This document shows, piece after piece, positions 11,458-64,000 of a DNA stretch of 64,000 nucleotides (positions are counted from its first letter, which is position 1; each line of letters opens with the position of its first letter). Under the pieces are notes generated by a model, which had not been told where the DNA came from, ran no database searches, and was given only the letters and a program-made list of their open reading frames with translations. The position numbers and the translations under genes are program-made. The stretch is taken from assembly GCA_048938385.1 (NCBI GenBank), contig JBHLMG010000001.1:269044-333043 (forward strand). Direction: 5' to 3'. Source of the stretch: Promethearchaeota archaeon. GTDB lineage: Archaea > Asgardarchaeota > Hermodarchaeia > Hermodarchaeales > Hermodarchaeaceae.

Positions 11458-12168
11458 GTGTCAGGGGTTCAGCGAGTGCGCCAAATTGAAATCTTCCCCG
11501 GCATATTATCCTTGATTTTAAGTAAGGCCGCTCGAGCAGGGCGGACTGAAATTGGCGGTTTCCTTATAGGTCGGATAGAACGCAGAAAATTAATTGTAAC
11601 TAGAGCAACATTTCCTCGGCAAGTTGGGACGCGCACTCATGTCTCCATTAACGATACAGATATGGCGATCCTCGCTGAGGAGCTCGCTGAACGAGGGGCA
11701 GGCGAAGTCATCATTGGGTGGCATCACACCCATCCAGGTCTTGGCGTGTTTATGTCAGGAACAGATGTCTCAACACAGCGCCGCTATCAAGCCTTCTTTC
11801 CCGAAGCTATTGCCATGGTAATGGACCCAATCAAATTCTCTGAAACCCTTAACCTCCAAGACCTAGATCTCCGAATTTACCGCGTAACAAATGGAAGCAC
11901 TGAAGAGCTCGATTATGTCTATGCTCACGATCCCTCTGAAATTATTCCTGATTTATACAGCATTATGCTTACTCTCGAAGAGCCAGCACACATGATTTTT
12001 GAGGATACTTGGTTTGAGAAGATGTTACGAGAAGTTTTTGGTGAAGAAGTGACCACACCCACCTTTACCTACCGGTTAGGTGACTTCTTAGAGGCTGCAG
12101 TGGCCTTTGGTACAATACTGTTTCTCGGAATTTTCATCGTTCTCGCTTTACTTGGGCTTATCGTCTAG
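11458..12168 (+). CDS. JAB1/MPN+ (JAMM) metalloprotease, Rpn11-like, with C-terminal TM anchor
   Basis: EIGGFLIG...WHHTHPGLGVFMSGTD, an intact JAMM motif; hydrophobic last ~24 aa. Confidence 0.9.
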   Translation: MSGVQRVRQIEIFPGILSLILSKAARAGRTEIGGFLIGRIERRKLIVTRATFPRQVGTRTHVSINDTDMAILAEELAERGAGEVIIGWHHTHPGLGVFMSGTDVSTQRRYQAFFPEAIAMVMDPIKFSETLNLQDLDLRIYRVTNGSTEELDYVYAHDPSEIIPDLYSIMLTLEEPAHMIFEDTWFEKMLREVFGEEVTTPTFTYRLGDFLEAAVAFGTILFLGIFIVLALLGLIV

Positions 12169-12260
12169 CTAGAAGCATTGACCACTACTTACAAACAACC
12201 TGAACGCCTCACGGATTAGATAGTCGCTAATTTAGAAGAATTAACTAAACCGAATTTACA

Positions 12261-12968
12261 CTATTCGGGTTCATCGAATCCTAAGGCCTTTAGAGCTGCG
12301 AGGATAGCCTCTTTATCATCCACAGAAACATCATCGTCTACTTCTGAACTTGCCTCAGAAATACTCACAGTCTCAAGGCCCGGTTCTTCAACGGGCGCGA
12401 TGGTCGGAGTGGCAACCGTGGGTTCTCCTTCCTCGACGACGGGTGTAATGGTCTCAGGAACCTCTTCGGGAGCTTCTGAAGCGCTCGAGCTTTCGGTCAC
12501 ATCTACTTCAGAAGTGGCTTCAATAGCAAGTGCCGGCTCTTCATGAACGGCTGGCATTTTACGGAAACCAAGCAGTTGTTCGGGTTCGAATGGGTGAGAT
12601 TCCATTATTTTTGTGACTTTTGTTGCATAAATCTTCATGAGTCCAATATAATATCCGAGACGAATTTGATCCCGACTAGCTCCGACTAGGAGGGTTTCCG
12701 GCGTTCCTCGCATAATAATGGTGAATCCCTTGTTTCCTCGGAGAATCACTTCAGAAAGGGTTCCTTGGCTCAGTTGCCTAAGGGTTTCCTCACCAACATT
12801 GACGAGGGTGGCAGTAGCTGCTGAGAAAATATCAGAATCAACATCGCCACTAACTGCACAGGCAAGACGAATCCCTTCTCGGGTCACAACGGCCAGAGCT
12901 TCAAGGCCTGTTGATTGTTCGATTCGTCTCATGAGATCTTGTAGTTCTTTAAAAGGAGTCTCTGCCAT
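12261..12968 (-). CDS. Roadblock/LC7 domain protein with long acidic tail
   Basis: ALAVVTREG...SAATATL...LSEVILRGNKG...LGYY Roadblock pattern; ~100-aa E/T/S/P-rich tail. Confidence 0.88.
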   Translation of the reverse strand: MAETPFKELQDLMRRIEQSTGLEALAVVTREGIRLACAVSGDVDSDIFSAATATLVNVGEETLRQLSQGTLSEVILRGNKGFTIIMRGTPETLLVGASRDQIRLGYYIGLMKIYATKVTKIMESHPFEPEQLLGFRKMPAVHEEPALAIEATSEVDVTESSSASEAPEEVPETITPVVEEGEPTVATPTIAPVEEPGLETVSISEASSEVDDDVSVDDKEAILAALKALGFDEPE

Positions 12969-13184
12969 CGTCTGCTACACTCTCTGTATGTGTCTATGTT
13001 GTTCTCTATTGTTTCCTATATCAAGGTTGCTGTAATGTCGGTGAGTTTTTTGGTAGTTTTGCGACCCTCGAAAACTCGTACTTGAAATTAAATACTTTCA
13101 GCTACCTCCTCTCGGTTCGCGTTCGCTGAAGCGTATTGGGGTTTTTATATGTTCTGTGAGAATCGCGAAGTGGGACAAGCTACC

Positions 13185-14282
13185 ATGGCGTCTACTTTTG
13201 ATGCACTCTTTAACGCAGACTATTTACCAACAAAACTGCTCCATCGAGATTTGGAACTTAACCTACTCTCAAAGCATTTTTCACCAGAGGAAAATTCCGA
13301 TCAGTCAATGAATGTCTTAGTTCATGGAAGTTTTGGTATTGGTCGGACAACGCTCCTCCGTTTTTTTGGACAACACGAAATGAAGACCTTTCACCAACCA
13401 CTCATTCGGTTTCAACAGAAACAACACAACGAAATCGTCGCAGATGCTCTTAACGCTCTAGCTCCAGCGTTACCTCAATCTACATCTCTCCCTGAACAAT
13501 GGACGCTTGTGAAGCGATTGCTTCGAAAAGCCGAGGTACCCTTACTCCTCACCTTTGACGATGTTGATCATCACACCAGCGAACTTTACGGTAAATTCTT
13601 ACAGATCTGTAAGGAAAATGGAGTCTCATCAATGGCCACGGCTCCCCGTTACTTCCCCAGACAACTTGAAGCAATCACATCCCAATTTCTTGATTTCTCT
13701 CTTGAATTGGCCCCTTTCTCTGATTATCAGTTTCTCGATATTGTTAAGCAACGAGTTGCTGAAGTTTATTCTAACCCTGTTCCCATACAAATTACTGAGT
13801 TTATGTCCGATCTCATTTGTCTTCTTGATTTTCAACGACCGGCTACTGTTGTGGACTTGCTTCAAAATCTCCACCCCCTACTATGTGGTCCCAACCTTAT
13901 TACAGCGGACACGATTCGACAAGCTTGCATAAACTCCAGTACGCTCCATTACGACTTTTGGAGCGAACATCTTTCAGGGCTAATGGAATTAGATGTCACC
14001 ACCGTTCTCCTCCTCCAAGCAATCGGGCAATACTTCGTGACCAATCCTGGCCAAATCTATGTCGCGAAATCTGCCTTACATTCCCAATTCCTGCAAGTCT
14101 CTGAATGCATTGGCTTAATTCCTTCTAGTTCTCAGTTCTCCCGTGCTCTTAACACCCTACTCTTTCAGGACTTATTGTTACATTCTCGATACTCATCAGA
14201 GAACTACTTCACTCTCCTTCCAGCTACAGGTTACCTAGATCTTGTTGAATTGCTCTTGGGTGAAAATCAAATCGAACAATAA
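13185..14282 (+). CDS. Divergent Orc1/Cdc6-family AAA+ protein
   Basis: N-terminal DYLPTKLLHRD, Walker A GSFGIGRT, Walker B LTFDDVD, LAPFS...DIVKQR, C-terminal wHTH-like region; alternative start 13149. Confidence 0.8.
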   Translation: MASTFDALFNADYLPTKLLHRDLELNLLSKHFSPEENSDQSMNVLVHGSFGIGRTTLLRFFGQHEMKTFHQPLIRFQQKQHNEIVADALNALAPALPQSTSLPEQWTLVKRLLRKAEVPLLLTFDDVDHHTSELYGKFLQICKENGVSSMATAPRYFPRQLEAITSQFLDFSLELAPFSDYQFLDIVKQRVAEVYSNPVPIQITEFMSDLICLLDFQRPATVVDLLQNLHPLLCGPNLITADTIRQACINSSTLHYDFWSEHLSGLMELDVTTVLLLQAIGQYFVTNPGQIYVAKSALHSQFLQVSECIGLIPSSSQFSRALNTLLFQDLLLHSRYSSENYFTLLPATGYLDLVELLLGENQIEQ

Positions 14283-14291
14283 TATTTCAGG

Positions 14292-14876
14292 TTAGCCTCT
14301 GGGTGGATTTTTCGCTAAAGCGCGTGCTAGTAACCGAGCAACACGAAGTGGTTCGGGGATGCTGCCAAACCTCGTAACTCGTCGTATCAACGCTTGAATC
14401 TCGTTCCACTTACAACCTTTAAACTGAACGAATACCGTCGAATGTGTATCTAGCAGTAGGGGTTGCAATTCCCCATTACGACGCGAAATTTTCCATCGGG
14501 CTTTCCAGTTCGATGGAAAAGTGTGAATCAAATGATCACGAAGGTTTTCATGGGGCTCACTGGTGACACTAATTACAGGAAGGTTAGTTACTTCGTGGAT
14601 CAAAGATAAATCAACAATATTGTATCCGGCGATCACTGTTCCTCGAATTAGTACACCGTTAAGATCGGTTCGTGATAAATCATGAACCATCTTGATGATT
14701 GTTTCCGATGCGTCTGTGCCTTGAATGGAAGCCTTGCCCCAAACTATTCCATCTATAATCAAATCGGCACGCATCACGATGCCACCTAATATCGTATGTG
14801 TAGAACCCGTGAGACCACTTTCAGCTATTCCTAACAAGCGGACCGATGGTTTCGAAAGCGATGATGCAGTCATCAA
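14292..14876 (-). CDS. DUF99 / endonuclease V-like protein
   Basis: LGIAES, GIVMRADLIIDG, GTDAS, IAGYNIVD, IPEPLRVA motifs. Confidence 0.88.
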   Translation of the reverse strand: MMTASSLSKPSVRLLGIAESGLTGSTHTILGGIVMRADLIIDGIVWGKASIQGTDASETIIKMVHDLSRTDLNGVLIRGTVIAGYNIVDLSLIHEVTNLPVISVTSEPHENLRDHLIHTFPSNWKARWKISRRNGELQPLLLDTHSTVFVQFKGCKWNEIQALIRRVTRFGSIPEPLRVARLLARALAKNPPRG

Positions 14877-59198: not shown

Positions 59199-60428
59199 TT
59201 GGTGACTGCTATGAAGACTCGTCCATTTCGAACCAATTTAGTCACCGCGCGAACAAAAACCATCCAGTACGCCATTCGCGATGTCGTGGTTGCTGCAAAA
59301 AAACTTGAAGCGGCAGGAAAACAAGTCACTTTCTTAAACATAGGCGATCCCATCGTCTACGATTTCGAAACGCCCTCCTTCCTAGTCGAGGCCTTTTGTC
59401 AAGCGGCCAAACAGGGATTAAATGGGTACTCCGCGTCAGCCGGTCTTACCGAATTTCGTGAAGCTGTCGTAGATAAAGAATACCGCGTCAACCAAGTAGT
59501 CATTAACCCCGAAGATGTAATTGCCACAGCTGGAATCTCAGAAGGGATACAGATGATGATGGCTGCACTCGTCCACCCTGGATCTGAAGTGCTTGTCCCT
59601 GGACCCACCTATCCCCCATATCTTGCCTTTGTACGGTTCTTCGATGGTGTGGCTCGGACCTACCGCTGCATTGAAGCGGAAGGTTGGCAACCCGATCTGG
59701 ACGACATTCGTAACAAGATTAGTGACCAGACGGCCGCCATGGTCCTCATCAACCCAAACAATCCGACTGGCGCAGTGTATTCGGAAAAAACCATCAAGGC
59801 TATCATTGACATTGCGGGTGAATATGGGCTTCCCCTAATCTCGGATGAAGTCTATGACCGACTCATCTACGATGCCCCTCGTAAAAGCACCGCTGCTCTC
59901 GCTCAGGATGTTCCCGTCATCGGCTTCAATGGGCTTTCCAAAGTCTATCTGGTTCCTGGTTGGCGAATTGGCTACATGTACTTTCATCATCCTAATCAGG
60001 ACCTCGCTGAACTGAAAGAACATATCCTCAAACAAGCCCGCATACGCATCTGTGCCAATGCTCCAGCACAATCTGCCGCCGCCGTGGCGCTCAGGAAATC
60101 TGATACCTACCTGCAAGAGGTCTTAGCGCGCCTCCGTCAGCGACGCGATCTAGTCTGGCAGCGACTCAACGAAATCGACGGGGTCTCTGCTGCGAAACCT
60201 GAAGGGGCTTTCTATATTTTTCCCAGCATTGAGTTGAAGGATCGCTGGCCTACCGATGAAGCCTTTGTTATGGATCTCCTGAAGACTACAGGCGTGCTCG
60301 TCGTCCATGGTTCGGGCTTCGATCCAATCTATGGAGCGAATCACTTCCGATTAGTCTTTCTAGCTCCACCAACGACGCTCAATACCGCCTTAGATGCGAT
60401 TCAATCCTTTGTGGAAAAAACTGGTTAA
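59199..60428 (+). CDS. Class I/II PLP aminotransferase (alanine aminotransferase-like)
   Basis: LNIGDP, INPNNPTG, SDEVYD, GLSK...PGWRIG. Confidence 0.92.
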   Translation: MVTAMKTRPFRTNLVTARTKTIQYAIRDVVVAAKKLEAAGKQVTFLNIGDPIVYDFETPSFLVEAFCQAAKQGLNGYSASAGLTEFREAVVDKEYRVNQVVINPEDVIATAGISEGIQMMMAALVHPGSEVLVPGPTYPPYLAFVRFFDGVARTYRCIEAEGWQPDLDDIRNKISDQTAAMVLINPNNPTGAVYSEKTIKAIIDIAGEYGLPLISDEVYDRLIYDAPRKSTAALAQDVPVIGFNGLSKVYLVPGWRIGYMYFHHPNQDLAELKEHILKQARIRICANAPAQSAAAVALRKSDTYLQEVLARLRQRRDLVWQRLNEIDGVSAAKPEGAFYIFPSIELKDRWPTDEAFVMDLLKTTGVLVVHGSGFDPIYGANHFRLVFLAPPTTLNTALDAIQSFVEKTG

Positions 60429-60429
60429 C

Positions 60430-60726
60430 TTAAGGATTTGGTTGGGTGCCCGTCTCCCCGGAGGTGCTCGTTCGCGCCTCTTGTACCATACGACCAATCG
60501 TGCCAAACATTCGTTCTGGCGAAAACATCGGCATGCTAACATTGTTTTGAATGGCGTTGAAAATCTCGTTATGGTTAAGATCAGTGGTCAAGGGGGTCGT
60601 TCCGACTTCCGTTTTTCCACGAAATATTCGGATTGCCCACCGATCACCGATTCGACCAAGCTCAACAAGATAACTGGTCATTGGAAGAAGGTACATTTGG
60701 GTGATGGGTCGGTATTCCTGGGACAT
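60430..60726 (-). CDS. Hypothetical protein
   Basis: 98-aa ORF downstream of the coiled-coil gene on the same strand. Confidence 0.6.
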   Translation of the reverse strand: MSQEYRPITQMYLLPMTSYLVELGRIGDRWAIRIFRGKTEVGTTPLTTDLNHNEIFNAIQNNVSMPMFSPERMFGTIGRMVQEARTSTSGETGTQPNP

Positions 60727-60789
60727 GCTCTTTCGCCTCTAAATATCGTATCACCCAATGTAAGCTAAAAAGGCTTTGTGCCACCGGTT

Positions 60790-62058
60790 CTAAGATTCTT
60801 CGCTTGCCTCTTTAGTAAGAACGGCTTGCACCTCGTCAGAAAATTCGACGACGATTTCATCACGAACCAAACGCGATAGGGACTCTTCAAGTCGCGTTTG
60901 GAGTTTTCGTAGCTGGGTGGAAATTCGCGTAATTTGCTCTTTGCAATGCGCAATCTCGGCGGTCACATCACGGTGTTCCCATTTCGCCCGATCAAGTGAT
61001 TTCTCTAACTCACGCCGGTCATCAAGTGACACTGCTGCCTCTAAGTCGGTTTTTCGCGATTCAAGTTCACCAAAATGCTGACGGTATTCATCCAATTCGC
61101 CCTTCTCACTCACGGTCGCTTGGCGCTCTAACACCTTCCGGTTCACGCTCTGCTTAAACGAGAGTTTATCTCCCGTAATGGCGTCCGTTAACGCTGTTAG
61201 TCCTGCTTTTAATCCCGTGAGGTTCACCTCATCCTTCTTGAAAGCTTCCCACGGGTCTATCGAATACGCGTCCGCGCCTTCTCCTGCCGTTGATGACACC
61301 ATCAGGGTGCTCCCTATCGCCTGACTTAATTTCTTAAACGGCTTTTTGAGAAAATTCAACTGGTTGGTGACAATCATCCGAATACTATCAATCTCTTTCT
61401 GAATCGCTTCAATTTCATCTAGCCCTGATTCAGCATGAAACTGATCAATATCTCCACGGTGTTCCTCAACACGACCGGCTGTTTCTTCCCGCTGCTGTTC
61501 CAGCTCCTTTAGCTGCTTAACCAAGGTCATAACCTGTCGCGACCGCTGAGCAATATCCTCCACATCGCGTTCAACCTTATCCAACTCCTTGGGGAGTTTG
61601 CTCTTCTCCCAAATCTTACGGACTTTCCGATAGCCCTGGTCGACGGCCCGAATCTGATAATCGAGCTCTTTAATGATCTTTTTGTGAACCGGTGGTAATC
61701 GGGGAATATACCGCCTCCCCGTCATCATCGTGTCTCTCAAATACCCCTCTAAATCCCCCATCAACTCTTCTACCGTCGAATATGTCAACTGGTCTGGAAA
61801 CGTGATCTCCTCCACGCTCTGCTTCAATTGACTCGCTAGCTTCTGCGCTGCTCCTGGAACGGTCATCTCTCCATCCAACAACACTTCCTCCAATAACAAA
61901 TCCGACGCCTCCCCCGTCTTCACAAACGCTTCATCAATCCGATCTAATTGGCGCCGCAGTTCCGCCCGATAACTGCTCAATAAGTCCTCAGACTGCTTTG
62001 CAAACCATGCAGGTAACTCGTCCACACCGATAACCGTCATAGCGCCGACCTCGCTCAC
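60790..62058 (-). CDS. Long coiled-coil protein
   Basis: 422 aa, heptad-rich, LKKPFKKL motif; start GTG 62058 or ATG 62040. Confidence 0.8.
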   Translation of the reverse strand: MSEVGAMTVIGVDELPAWFAKQSEDLLSSYRAELRRQLDRIDEAFVKTGEASDLLLEEVLLDGEMTVPGAAQKLASQLKQSVEEITFPDQLTYSTVEELMGDLEGYLRDTMMTGRRYIPRLPPVHKKIIKELDYQIRAVDQGYRKVRKIWEKSKLPKELDKVERDVEDIAQRSRQVMTLVKQLKELEQQREETAGRVEEHRGDIDQFHAESGLDEIEAIQKEIDSIRMIVTNQLNFLKKPFKKLSQAIGSTLMVSSTAGEGADAYSIDPWEAFKKDEVNLTGLKAGLTALTDAITGDKLSFKQSVNRKVLERQATVSEKGELDEYRQHFGELESRKTDLEAAVSLDDRRELEKSLDRAKWEHRDVTAEIAHCKEQITRISTQLRKLQTRLEESLSRLVRDEIVVEFSDEVQAVLTKEASEES

Positions 62059-62203
62059 CTCATCACAACTGCACCATTAAAAACATTACCACACAGGGAA
62101 CCTTACCTCCAACACCCCTCTAAAGAACACGCCAAAAAGCTTATCAGCGCCCTCCCATAAGCAACCATAAAAAGACCCAACATCCCCGGATGGTGAGCGG
62201 GCT

Positions 62204-63094
62204 ATTATCCACAACGCAATCCTCCTCAGCATCAGCCCCCGCAAAGACGAAGTCGGTCTCCAAGCCAGCGTCTTATTCCGCAAACAGTACTGGCGCGTCG
62301 TCCTCACCGACGACATGGTCCGTGAATTTCTCCGCGCCTATAAAGAATTCATGAGCCACGTCCAGTCCAGCGACATCCCCGCCCTCCCCATCCACATTCA
62401 AGGCGCGAAATTCATCTTCACCAACGTCGACGACCTCCTCCTCGTCTTCATCAGCCACATGCAAGACGAAGACAACCGCGTCGCCGAAAAAGTCAAAACC
62501 GCGCTCCGGATGCTCGTCGGCAAATACGGCACCGACCAAATCAAAGACATCGGCAACAGCGACAACCCCCAGCCCATCGAAGACCTCATCGACAACTACA
62601 TCATGAGCAAGCTCAAAGTCAGCCTCGTCGGCGAAGGCGGCGTCGGCAAAACCACCCTCCTCCGCCTCCTCAAAGGCGGCGCCCCCCCCACCGAGTACGT
62701 CCCCACCATCGCCCTCAGCATCGAACAGATCGAAGCCACCCGCTACGGCACCTACAGCATCATCCTCTGGGACTTCGCCGGCCAAGAACGCTTCCGCCGC
62801 CTCTGGACCATCTACTTCCGCGGCAGCGACATCGTCTTCATCATCACCGACTCCACCCTCAACAACGTCATCGCCACCAAAGAAATCCTCGACGTCATCC
62901 GCAAAGACGCCCCCGGCGTCCCCGTCTGGGCCATCGCCAACAAACAAGACCTCGAAGGCGCCCTCACCCCCGAACTCGTCGAACGCATCCTCGGCATCCC
63001 CGCCTTCGGCATGGTCGCCATCGACCAAAAACGCAAAGAAGAAATGATGACCATCCTTCTGGATGCTGTGGAAAGATACATAGGCACGGGTTAA
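62204..63094 (+). CDS. Longin-like domain-small GTPase (Rab/Arf-like) fusion; probable ATT start
   Basis: GEGGVGKT, YVPT, WDFAGQERF, ANKQD; the frame is open upstream of ATG 62315 to IIHNAILLS, preceded by GGTGA. Confidence 0.9.
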   Translation: MIHNAILLSISPRKDEVGLQASVLFRKQYWRVVLTDDMVREFLRAYKEFMSHVQSSDIPALPIHIQGAKFIFTNVDDLLLVFISHMQDEDNRVAEKVKTALRMLVGKYGTDQIKDIGNSDNPQPIEDLIDNYIMSKLKVSLVGEGGVGKTTLLRLLKGGAPPTEYVPTIALSIEQIEATRYGTYSIILWDFAGQERFRRLWTIYFRGSDIVFIITDSTLNNVIATKEILDVIRKDAPGVPVWAIANKQDLEGALTPELVERILGIPAFGMVAIDQKRKEEMMTILLDAVERYIGTG

Positions 63095-63140
63095 ATTAAT
63101 TAAATAATCTGTGAATATATATAGCATCAAATTAATATAA
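63091..63140. other. AT-rich element at the strand-skew inversion (candidate unwinding element and/or terminator)
   Basis: 44 of 50 bases A/T; lies between a C/A-rich left arm and a G/T-rich right arm. Confidence 0.4.
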
Positions 63141-64000
63141 CTCTTGATTTATGCTCTTCATGATTTTTCGAATTCGTCCTGGATAGTAGCAGATACCGAG
63201 TTTATCAAAAATGAATTCGGTGATTTCTCCAGGACTTCTTTTCTGTTTAGCAAGTTTTTCGATATAATATTCTGCTTTCCAATGCATTGGTGCCCATGCA
63301 TTTTGCATTCTTGCTGCAATCATTTTAGCGAGCTTAGCTGCCTGATCTTGTCGACCTGTAGCATGTAGAAAAAAGGGGAGCTTTGCTGCATGGATGACGC
63401 TTGCTTGTTGTTCAATGATAACACGGTTTTTGAGAAATCTGCTGTTAACCCCCAGTGTACTAAGTAATTCAATCAAAAAAGGGCTGTTGACCTCACTTGC
63501 GTTGCCGAGCTTTTGGTATTTGGTGTTGGCGTAGCCATCGCCGTCATTGAGGCCTTGGAGGAATTTGGTGCGGATGTGGCGGGGGGCGGTGTGGAGCCAG
63601 GGGGCGGTGATGGGGGTGTAGGTGGTGAGTTGGGTGGGGGTGAGGCCGAGGCAGGTGTGTTTGATCCAGGTGAGGAGGGGGGTGGCTTGGCTGCGCCAGC
63701 GGTGTTTTGGGGGGTAGGGTTTGGGTTCGGCGAAGATGCCGAGGTGGCCGAGGTAGTAGCAGGTGGCGTCGCCGACGTGTTGGCTCCAGGGGTAGCGTTT
63801 GGTGAGGCTCATGTCGAGGCGGGTGCTGGTGTAGTGGGGGGTGATTTTGCCGGCGTCGCTGACGAGGATGCCGAGGAGGTAGGCGAAGGCGGCGTCCTGG
63901 GAAATGGGGCCGAAGCGGTGGTGCCAGTGCGTCATGTTTGGGTTCGTAAGGGGTTGGAGTTGGTGGAGGACGGGGGGGAGTTGGGTCCAGGTGGTGATGG
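63132..64000 (-). CDS. Double-motif LAGLIDADG endonuclease-like protein with C-terminal HTH, 5'-truncated by window
   Basis: AYLLGILVSDAG and FLQGLNDGDG motifs; frame stays open upstream of ATG 63935 to the window end. Confidence 0.8.
   Translation of the reverse strand, partial: ITTWTQLPPVLHQLQPLTNPNMTHWHHRFGPISQDAAFAYLLGILVSDAGKITPHYTSTRLDMSLTKRYPWSQHVGDATCYYLGHLGIFAEPKPYPPKHRWRSQATPLLTWIKHTCLGLTPTQLTTYTPITAPWLHTAPRHIRTKFLQGLNDGDGYANTKYQKLGNASEVNSPFLIELLSTLGVNSRFLKNRVIIEQQASVIHAAKLPFFLHATGRQDQAAKLAKMIAARMQNAWAPMHWKAEYYIEKLAKQKRSPGEITEFIFDKLGICYYPGRIRKIMKSINQELY

Follow-up and report, generated by a model that had tools for sequence, protein, structure and literature searches.

An abrupt inversion of strand composition behind a small-GTPase gene of an Asgard archaeon: probable footprint of recombinational repair

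The DNA considered here, called the window, makes up the final 64 kb of contig C23 in a metagenome-assembled genome (MAG) of a Promethearchaeota archaeon of the family Hermodarchaeaceae (GCA_048938385.1). The MAG consists of 51 contigs, and position 64000 of the window is the contig end. Near this end the base composition of the two DNA strands inverts around a short centre situated between a small-GTPase gene, GTPase1, and a gene for a LAGLIDADG endonuclease. On the + strand, C and A prevail from about 61000 to 63055 and G and T from about 63505 to the end of the window; the stretch between them, from 63056, is AT-rich and without skew. This pattern is far beyond chance. On balance, it is probable that the skew is a strand-polar mutational footprint of recurrent recombinational repair at a recombination hot spot rather than the mark of a replication origin. 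In what follows, g1 denotes the genus of the source genome (G000) and g2 its sister genus, relatives are labelled from G001 upward, and coordinates refer to the window unless a contig is named.

Strand composition on the two sides of the centre

The GC skew of the window was profiled on the + strand in 200-nt windows. It is −0.3 to −0.43 over 61700-63000, about zero over 63000-63400 and +0.46 to +0.58 over 63500-64000. The arms have a GC content of 0.55-0.65 and the centre one of 0.33-0.42, compared with 46% for the genome. Both edges of the centre are sharp to the codon, with the sequence ...ACC ATC/CTT CTG... at 63055/63056 on the left and ...GGC AAC/GCA AGT... at about 63503 on the right. 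The centre measures about 450 nt and the arms about 1.2-2 kb. The hand counts of the initial annotation, which had been made from the letters of the DNA, are exact (26 C/5 G in 61861-61920, 30 C/12 G in 62641-62700, 37 G/4 C in 63601-63660, and 88% AT in 63091-63140), and the abrupt stop and restart of the skew that it described were found at these two edges. It had also proposed runs of G in the right arm that could form G-quadruplexes, yet the stretch 63510-64000 contains 0 canonical (G3+N1-7)x4 motifs.

Strand composition was further expressed as (C+A−G−T)/N in 400-nt windows, for which the genome-wide standard deviation (SD) is 0.091. By this measure the centre is the only in-contig site of the whole genome at which both arms exceed 0.25 in the C/A-to-G/T polarity. 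Genome-wide, the sharp flips with a gap of no more than 600 nt comprise one of this origin-type polarity and two of the opposite type, numbers too small, in a fragmented genome, to establish a uniform polarity. The two opposite-type flips resemble adjacent arms of separate centres.

The distal left arm is occupied by a gene on the minus strand (60790..62058, −) that encodes a coiled-coil protein of 422 aa with no Pfam family and has codons ending in G/T. The gene that anchors the locus, GTPase1 (62171..63094, +), encodes a roadblock-like N-terminal part fused to a small GTPase of the Arf/Roc/Ras type. It forms the proximal left arm (62207..63055, +), where the 283 third positions are 216 C, 41 A, 21 G and 5 T. 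The centre (63056..63505) comprises the last 12 codons and the stop of GTPase1, an AT-rich spacer of 37 nt between the two convergent genes (63095..63131), which is the sole non-coding DNA in it, and the last ~125 codons of the endonuclease gene. The window contains the 3′ part of this gene (63132..64000, −; 288 of about 530 codons), and its 5′ part lies at C11:1 to about 740. In the right arm (63506..64000, +) the + strand is G/T-rich, and the minus-strand endonuclease codons end in C/A, with coding-strand third positions of C 129, A 18, G 12 and T 4. The arm runs on for about 1.1 kb on C11, and in the joined contigs it extends to about +2000 from the GTPase1 stop.

Since the locus lies at a contig end and many related MAGs break within it, one might suspect an assembly artefact, either a faulty contig end or chimerism near 63055 or 63505. 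Contigs C23 and C11 overlap by 5 nt, in frame within the endonuclease gene, and the break falls in the most G-rich stretch. The join sits exactly where orthologous endonucleases continue, at residue 244. C11, as a whole contig, overlaps the start of C29 by 77 nt, and the order C23-C11-C29 is consecutive. Both open reading frames (ORFs) run through the boundaries of the centre, and the same three-part layout was assembled independently in G003, G008, G011 and G006, in the last two in the middle of a contig. The chance that a misassembly produced the pattern is therefore negligible. Among the circumstances that the initial annotation had named as speaking against the anomaly were a chimeric join and the lack of a conserved inversion in relatives, and the same four genomes dispose of both.

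In GTPase1 the skew resides in silent positions. The share of C+A at its third codon positions, 0.87, is the highest among the 1629 ORFs of at least 200 aa (mean 0.524, SD 0.059). Its arm comes near to using one codon per amino acid (Leu CTC 27/28, Val GTC 22/22, Ile ATC 29/30), and 95% of the four-fold sites are C. By codon position, the skew of the arm is −0.82 at position 3 and about zero at positions 1 and 2. The amino-acid composition predicts a GC skew of +0.01 as against the −0.34 observed, so that protein composition, which the initial annotation had considered as a possible full explanation, fails to account for it. The endonuclease arm is skewed at positions 1 and 2 too, and its protein is rich in T, P, H, L and Q. 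The skew at these positions and the shifted residues point to mutation pressure rather than to design or selection.

The bias follows the DNA strand and not the direction of the genes, as had been claimed initially. In the coiled-coil gene, which is read from the opposite strand to GTPase1, the third positions are G 161, T 95, A 99 and C 67, and the amino-acid composition accounts for +0.08 of the +0.25 coding-strand GC skew. Across g1, the share of G+T at the third positions of this gene falls from 0.73 beside the centre to 0.49 about 1.2 kb away; in g2 it is about 0.48. The right arms of G011 and G006 contain + strand genes with codons ending in G/T and one minus-strand gene with codons ending in C/A. 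In the 17.7-kb gene array that follows GTPase1 in G000, the third-position C+A share averages 0.42 for genes on the + strand and 0.66 for those on the minus strand (p = 8e-5). Finally, two successive co-directional genes, GT2, which encodes a second roadblock-GTPase, and the gene after it (NEXT), differ in third-position C+A from 0.84 to 0.26 in G008 and from 0.85 to 0.19 in G011. A bias of the coding strand, suggested by the convergence of two extreme genes, is ruled out by the coiled-coil gene, the right-arm genes of G011 and G006, and the GT2/NEXT pair. DNA back-translated in silico or otherwise synthetic was likewise rejected, given that the codon rule has exceptions, that residues are shifted, that the bias forms a gradient, that relatives share the pattern and that the sign is mirrored.

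Could the skew have been selected? Selection might favour structure-free C/A-rich 3′ tails, G-rich strands that steer recombination, or optimal codons in highly expressed genes. The preferred set (GTC, ACC, CTC, GCC, GAA, AAA) does consist of the genome's own commoner codons, and if the 5′ strands were resected from the centre, the tails that remain would be rich in C/A and could not pair with themselves. However, opposite-strand genes in the same arm use the non-preferred G/T-ending codons, the selfish endonuclease gene shows the same bias as the host gene, and the amino-acid composition of weakly constrained proteins has been dragged along. The arms also decay in most lineages, and selection acting on hundreds of silent sites would need to be very strong. 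We consider this explanation improbable.

The slot behind GTPase1 and its predicted endonuclease

The inversion is present in five g1 species (G000, G003, G008, G011 and G006) and absent from g2. In g2 a gene for a 328-aa protein begins 56-160 nt behind GTPase1 and is followed by GT2, with no insert and no skew. In g1 the cargo behind GTPase1 differs between species, being 3.3 kb long in G011, about 22 kb in G006 and 17.7 kb in G000, and inserts are also present in G003, G008 and G012. The insert opens with a convergent endonuclease gene of about 530 codons in G000, G003, G008 and G012, and no endonuclease gene was found within the stretch examined of the G011 and G006 inserts. The cargo of G000 consists of ordinary accessory genes, among them those for an alpha/beta hydrolase, a helicase, a GNAT acetyltransferase and a PALP-PadR fusion. 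Alleles of the site are occupied or empty depending on the species. To judge from these gene orders, the spot behind the GTPase1 stop is a slot for the insertion and exchange of foreign DNA in g1.

A second mirror-image inversion occurs between GT2 and NEXT. It was found at loci L011 (G011:C26, about 11849-14800), L027 (G008) and L029 (G001). In G011 this site contains a 590-bp insert with a 185-aa minus-strand ORF; in G008 and G001 it is equally skewed and its 186-nt spacer is unchanged. The skew of GT2 ranges from none (G007) to extreme (G008, G001 and G011), with third-position C+A of 0.50-0.85. This range, which includes the empty spacer, suggests that the process is episodic and lineage-specific and that it can act at sites that are empty today.

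The initial annotation regarded the switch as origin-like. One part of that view stands, as the change from C/A to G/T on the + strand is the polarity expected at a bidirectional origin. In addition, an AT-rich tract lies at the centre, and a mild G/T bias persists over some 16 kb of the array to the right. On this view the centre would be an origin of the chromosome or of an integrated element, and the arms its leading/lagging skew in locally amplified form. The origin itself found no support. The non-coding core is only 37 nt long and the rest of the unskewed zone is coding. A search for repeats resembling origin recognition boxes (ORBs) gave none in the centre, where the repeats detected are low-complexity composition effects only. 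As the initial annotation had noted, there is no adjacent cdc6: the three orc1/cdc6 genes in the whole genome (Pfam Cdc6_C) are at C23:20296, 30889 and 152436, the nearest about 180 kb off. Farther out, (C+A−G−T)/N amounts to −0.004 to −0.03 on the left (3-100 kb) and to −0.03 on the right (18-45 kb), which leaves no replichore-scale switch; the skew returns to about zero within 3 kb on the left, and both sides are equal beyond 20 kb. Moreover, g2 has the same genes without skew, the inversion at the second site is present or missing among close species that share an identical 186-nt spacer, and the centre sequence is unconserved among 18 relatives, unlike an origin. An origin at the centre is thus very unlikely, and we conclude that the flip is not one.

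The endonuclease carries the motifs ...LLGILVSDAG... and ...LQGLNDGDG..., and the acidic residues D48, D152 and D154 are invariant in the 14 family members that were compared. The intact orthologue of G008 scores 26.2 bits against Pfam LAGLIDADG_3 (cut-off 22.5), and the partial copy of G000 scores 19.1-21 bits, below the cut-off. An AlphaFold model (predicted local distance difference test score, pLDDT, 92.3; predicted template modelling score, pTM, 0.89) has the pseudo-dimeric alpha-beta-beta-alpha-beta-beta-alpha fold of the double-motif enzymes. In Foldseek it matches PI-SceI, I-DmoI, I-Tsp061I, PI-PfuI and E-DreI with a probability of 1.00, and also WhiA, a non-cutting relative with the same layout of a LAGLIDADG part followed by a C-terminal helix-turn-helix. 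A sequence search of the PDB returned no significant match, and a scan of viral contigs found no relatives of the family. In g1 as in g2 the family has a patchy, multi-copy distribution; some copies have in-frame stops and many are at contig ends. The gene product is predicted to be a free-standing, double-motif LAGLIDADG homing endonuclease. The patchy distribution, the copies with in-frame stops and the occupied and empty alleles of the slot are indirect signs that it may cleave specific sites and home into empty alleles. The initial annotation had asked whether other LAGLIDADG copies sit at similar inversions, and this proved true in part: at 5 of 14 paralogous loci the C-terminal third of the gene is unskewed and the rest skewed.

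The sequence of the centre has a history different from that of the arms. The N-terminal 400 residues of the endonuclease are 64-68% identical among three orthologues compared to 40-50% with paralogues. For the last ~120 residues the values are 38-50% among orthologues and 37-44% with paralogues. Since the C-terminal part is no closer among orthologues than to paralogues, it has a deeper ancestry than the N-terminal part and is not intrinsically fast-evolving, which argues that it was replaced. The point in the endonuclease at which the skew begins varies by species (alignment columns ~525, 500 and 450). The tail of GTPase1 reads DAVERY in G000, like DAVEKY in g2, while other g1 species have DAVDRY, and in those species the skew runs nearer to the GTPase1 stop codon than in G000. 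When the centre (63056-63505) was compared with 18 other genomes of the family, nothing beyond its first 48 nt matched at the nucleotide level. We read the unskewed centre as a swapped-in module that combines a fresh GTPase tail with the C-terminal part of the endonuclease. In the structural model the swapped part takes in the final strands of LAGLIDADG domain 2 together with the helical domain at the C-terminus, and by analogy with solved relatives it would be in contact with DNA. One may reasonably suppose that the tail of the host gene, as the likely target or site of immunity, would move together with the specificity module that matches it.

A small rearrangement was seen at the same slot in g2. 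At locus L017 (G018:C85), in a genome without skew, the GTPase1 stop is followed by 16 nt, tgttggaacagcataa, that repeat the older tail as it stands in G017. This copy suggests that the last five GTPase1 codons were replaced by a differently coded duplicate, that is, a miniature tail replacement.

With a demonstrably mosaic centre and a mobile endonuclease family, it might be supposed that the arms, too, are foreign, being co-conversion tracts or transferred copies from a donor with an extreme strand composition. The codon-sharp boundaries and a GC content of 55-65% versus 46% for the genome would agree with this. Nonetheless, GTPase1 has kept its synteny, and its orthologues show the expected identity pattern (91-95% in g1, 71-75% in g2). 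The skew fades gradually through the coiled-coil gene on the opposite strand, the opposite signs of the two arms are impossible to derive from one donor composition, the skew of GT2 takes intermediate values across species (0.50 to 0.85), and no donor of such composition is known. Foreign arms are accordingly an unlikely explanation.

Substitution directions and the proposed repair mechanism

Substitutions were counted with the unskewed g2 orthologues as a proxy for the ancestral bases. At four-fold sites of the GTPase arm, C has replaced T at 20/21, A at 16/19 and G at 5/5 sites; at other sites T>C occurred at 28/30 and G>A at 8/20. The younger, lineage-specific arm of GT2 gave T>C at 23-26/35, A>C at 7-8/10 and G>C at 3-4/4, with G001 and G012 left out of the count. 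On the + strand of the left arm, therefore, every other base has changed to C. Singletons of GTPase1 within g1, on the other hand, mostly represent decay (C>T 44, C>A 17, C>G 17 and A>G 13, versus T>C 1). They are not retained ancestral states, as 16/44 match g2 compared with 35% by chance.

As an alternative to an origin, the initial annotation had put forward a mutational footprint of single-stranded DNA. A strand-specific footprint is indeed the better reading. Simple deamination of single strands was rejected as a sufficient cause, however, since the transversions A>C and G>C are nearly complete and have gone as far as the transitions.

We propose that break-and-repair events at the slot would resynthesise DNA outward from the centre. 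At each event, the strand that runs 5′->3′ away from the centre would gain G (and T), and its partner C (and A). After many events silent sites would be saturated, and proteins under weak constraint would shift in amino-acid composition. The AT-rich, unskewed centre would be the piece exchanged most recently, joined to older DNA at two sharp junctions. The constraint set by the data is geometrical: the outward 5′->3′ strand gains G (and T). This geometry is common to the leading strands at an origin, to the fill-in of resected strands, and to a nascent strand extended from a break by synthesis-dependent strand annealing or break-induced replication. The bias may arise if the nascent strand is damaged while it is temporarily single-stranded (A>G, C>G and C>T) and background mutation feeds a G sink, or else through repair synthesis with a strong bias towards misinsertion of dG; the two routes are inseparable on these data.

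Several points weigh against the proposed footprint of recombinational repair. We infer three of its elements: the breaks at the slot, the endonuclease as their maker and the repair step behind the bias. The sign is opposite to that of the one well-documented footprint flanking double-strand breaks (DSBs), that of human hot spots, which predicts a G/T-rich + strand on the left (PMC7615360). The strong inversion at the empty 186-nt spacer implies that an endonuclease gene is neither sufficient nor locally necessary, and 9 of the 14 paralogous endonuclease loci have no skew. No displaced copies of the GTPase tail were detected in the array by a peptide search allowing up to 5 mismatches or by self-BLASTN with 9-nt words; the sole repeat found in the self-comparison was that of GTPase1 with GTPase2. 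The decay spectrum indicates that in the genus ancestor the GTPase arm had already reached saturation, and that most lineages are losing the bias without its being renewed. Lastly, the A>C transversions require either a polymerase with an unusual dG bias or a two-step path. As to the sign, uracil and hypoxanthine in the template stall the archaeal polymerases of families B and D. We speculate that such stalling might suppress the human-type sign in archaea.

A more specific picture has, in our estimate, a chance slightly short of even. It is that of an Asgard family in which a hitherto undescribed, repair-linked hypermutation acts within ~2 kb of recurrently broken mobile-element slots and drives the outward strand to G, with a sign opposite to that of the eukaryotic resection footprint. 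Host genes near such slots would be recoded almost to one codon per amino acid and would keep a record of where, and roughly for how long, homing endonucleases and cassettes have been exchanged. In a bolder variant, the centres might be break-triggered start sites of recombination-dependent replication.

The host gene, other affected loci and known systems

GTPase1 matches the Pfam families Arf (2.9e-18; 66.4 bits against a cut-off of 22.3), Roc (2e-17) and Ras (7.5e-15) and the NCBIfam model small_GTP. It contains the motifs of a small GTPase, GEGGVGKT as the P-loop, DFAGQ as DxxG and NKQD as NKxD. Its frame is open from 62171, with the first in-frame ATG at 62315 and no in-frame ATG, GTG or TTG earlier. 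An ATG at 62190, beside a short run of G, is one base out of frame; one added base in this region would give M-V-S-G-A-I-I-H-N..., similar to the paralogue start M-I-H-N-V... The start could thus reflect a frameshift, a sequencing error or a non-canonical initiation.

The gene neighbourhood is kept in both genera (window 59199-63094; L016-L018). It consists of an aminotransferase, a small protein, the coiled-coil protein and the first roadblock-GTPase, and it continues with the 328-aa protein, the second roadblock-GTPase and a protein of 437-535 aa. The 328-aa protein, which has no Pfam family, and the 437-535-aa protein have similar N-termini (…GL.V..WD.K.GL…). The neighbourhood may be a GTPase regulatory module.

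Skewed patches were also noticed elsewhere. At C37:61400-63200 of G000 the skew flips inside a single minus-strand ORF of 987 aa, the + strand being G/T-, C/A- and again G/T-rich, and this is possibly a further centre within a gene. Patches of equally extreme C/A-ending codons occur in core genes of G000, namely RadA, actin, two hydrogenase loci and MCM (C2:6-446, C15:6-221, C31:105070-105864, C46:6-1534 and C23:153391-154386), most of them exactly at contig ends. At least eight related MAGs have contig ends in or at GTPase1 (for example G012:C90, G005:C250, G013:C241, G009:C144 and G014:C7). The locus is a systematic assembly breakpoint in the genus, and the frequent breaks fit an extreme composition or population heterogeneity at the centre.

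The coincidence of extreme arms with contig breaks, here and in many related MAGs, means that such loci are systematically fragmented in assemblies. It also appears that mutation acting locally can give a conserved host gene almost entirely new codons and shift residues in less constrained proteins. This matters for the use of codon usage to infer expression or horizontal transfer, and for phylogenies that rest on such genes, since those affected in G000 include the genes for MCM, actin, RadA and hydrogenases. Should the footprint result from break repair, sequence alone would suffice to map the hot spots of recombination and the slots of mobile elements in uncultured archaea. The footprint would then also inform on break repair in the closest prokaryotic relatives of eukaryotes, where the sign differs from that in humans.

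The closest parallel is with human meiotic DSB hot spots. There the retained 3′ tail, the forward strand on the left side, loses C and A (Hinch et al. 2023, PMC7615360). A long-range asymmetry of C>G and A>G, both of which yield G, has been ascribed to break-induced replication (PMC7615360). The locus described here shares with these hot spots a narrow symmetric centre, mirror-image, strand-specific arms of 1-2 kb and a weaker long-range asymmetry (PMC7615360). It differs in sign, because left of the centre the changes on the + strand (T>C, A>C, G>C and G>A) produce C and A. It also differs in its saturating amplitude, with transversions to C/G as complete as transitions, and in its setting at an archaeal mobile-element slot, in place of PRDM9/SPO11. 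Bacterial and archaeal origins show the same change from C/A-rich to G/T-rich on the + strand and a G/T-rich outward continuous strand (PMC3269012). In contrast to them, the present arms are 1-2 kb long and not of replichore size, there is no ORB and no adjacent orc1/cdc6, the core is unconserved, and the pattern is lineage-specific.

The arrangement of the slot resembles that of free-standing homing endonucleases, with the gene directly behind a conserved host gene, the last host codons recoded and a patchy, multi-copy distribution. The seg and mob genes of phage T4 are known for intronless homing with co-conversion of flanks, and mobile ORFs in fungal mitochondria carry a replacement C-terminus for the host gene. 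Two differences are that no displaced old tail was found in G000 and that only the C-terminal DNA-binding module appears to have been exchanged. To our knowledge, a saturated mirror-image skew of the flanks has not been reported for either of these systems, and in our literature search such footprints turned up neither at sites of homing endonucleases or inteins nor in Asgard genomes. In its variable specificity segment between conserved recombination flanks, the endonuclease is comparable to the target-recognition domains of Type I HsdS. Local strand-asymmetric mutagenesis at break hot spots is already known; what is new here is its sign, its amplitude and its setting.

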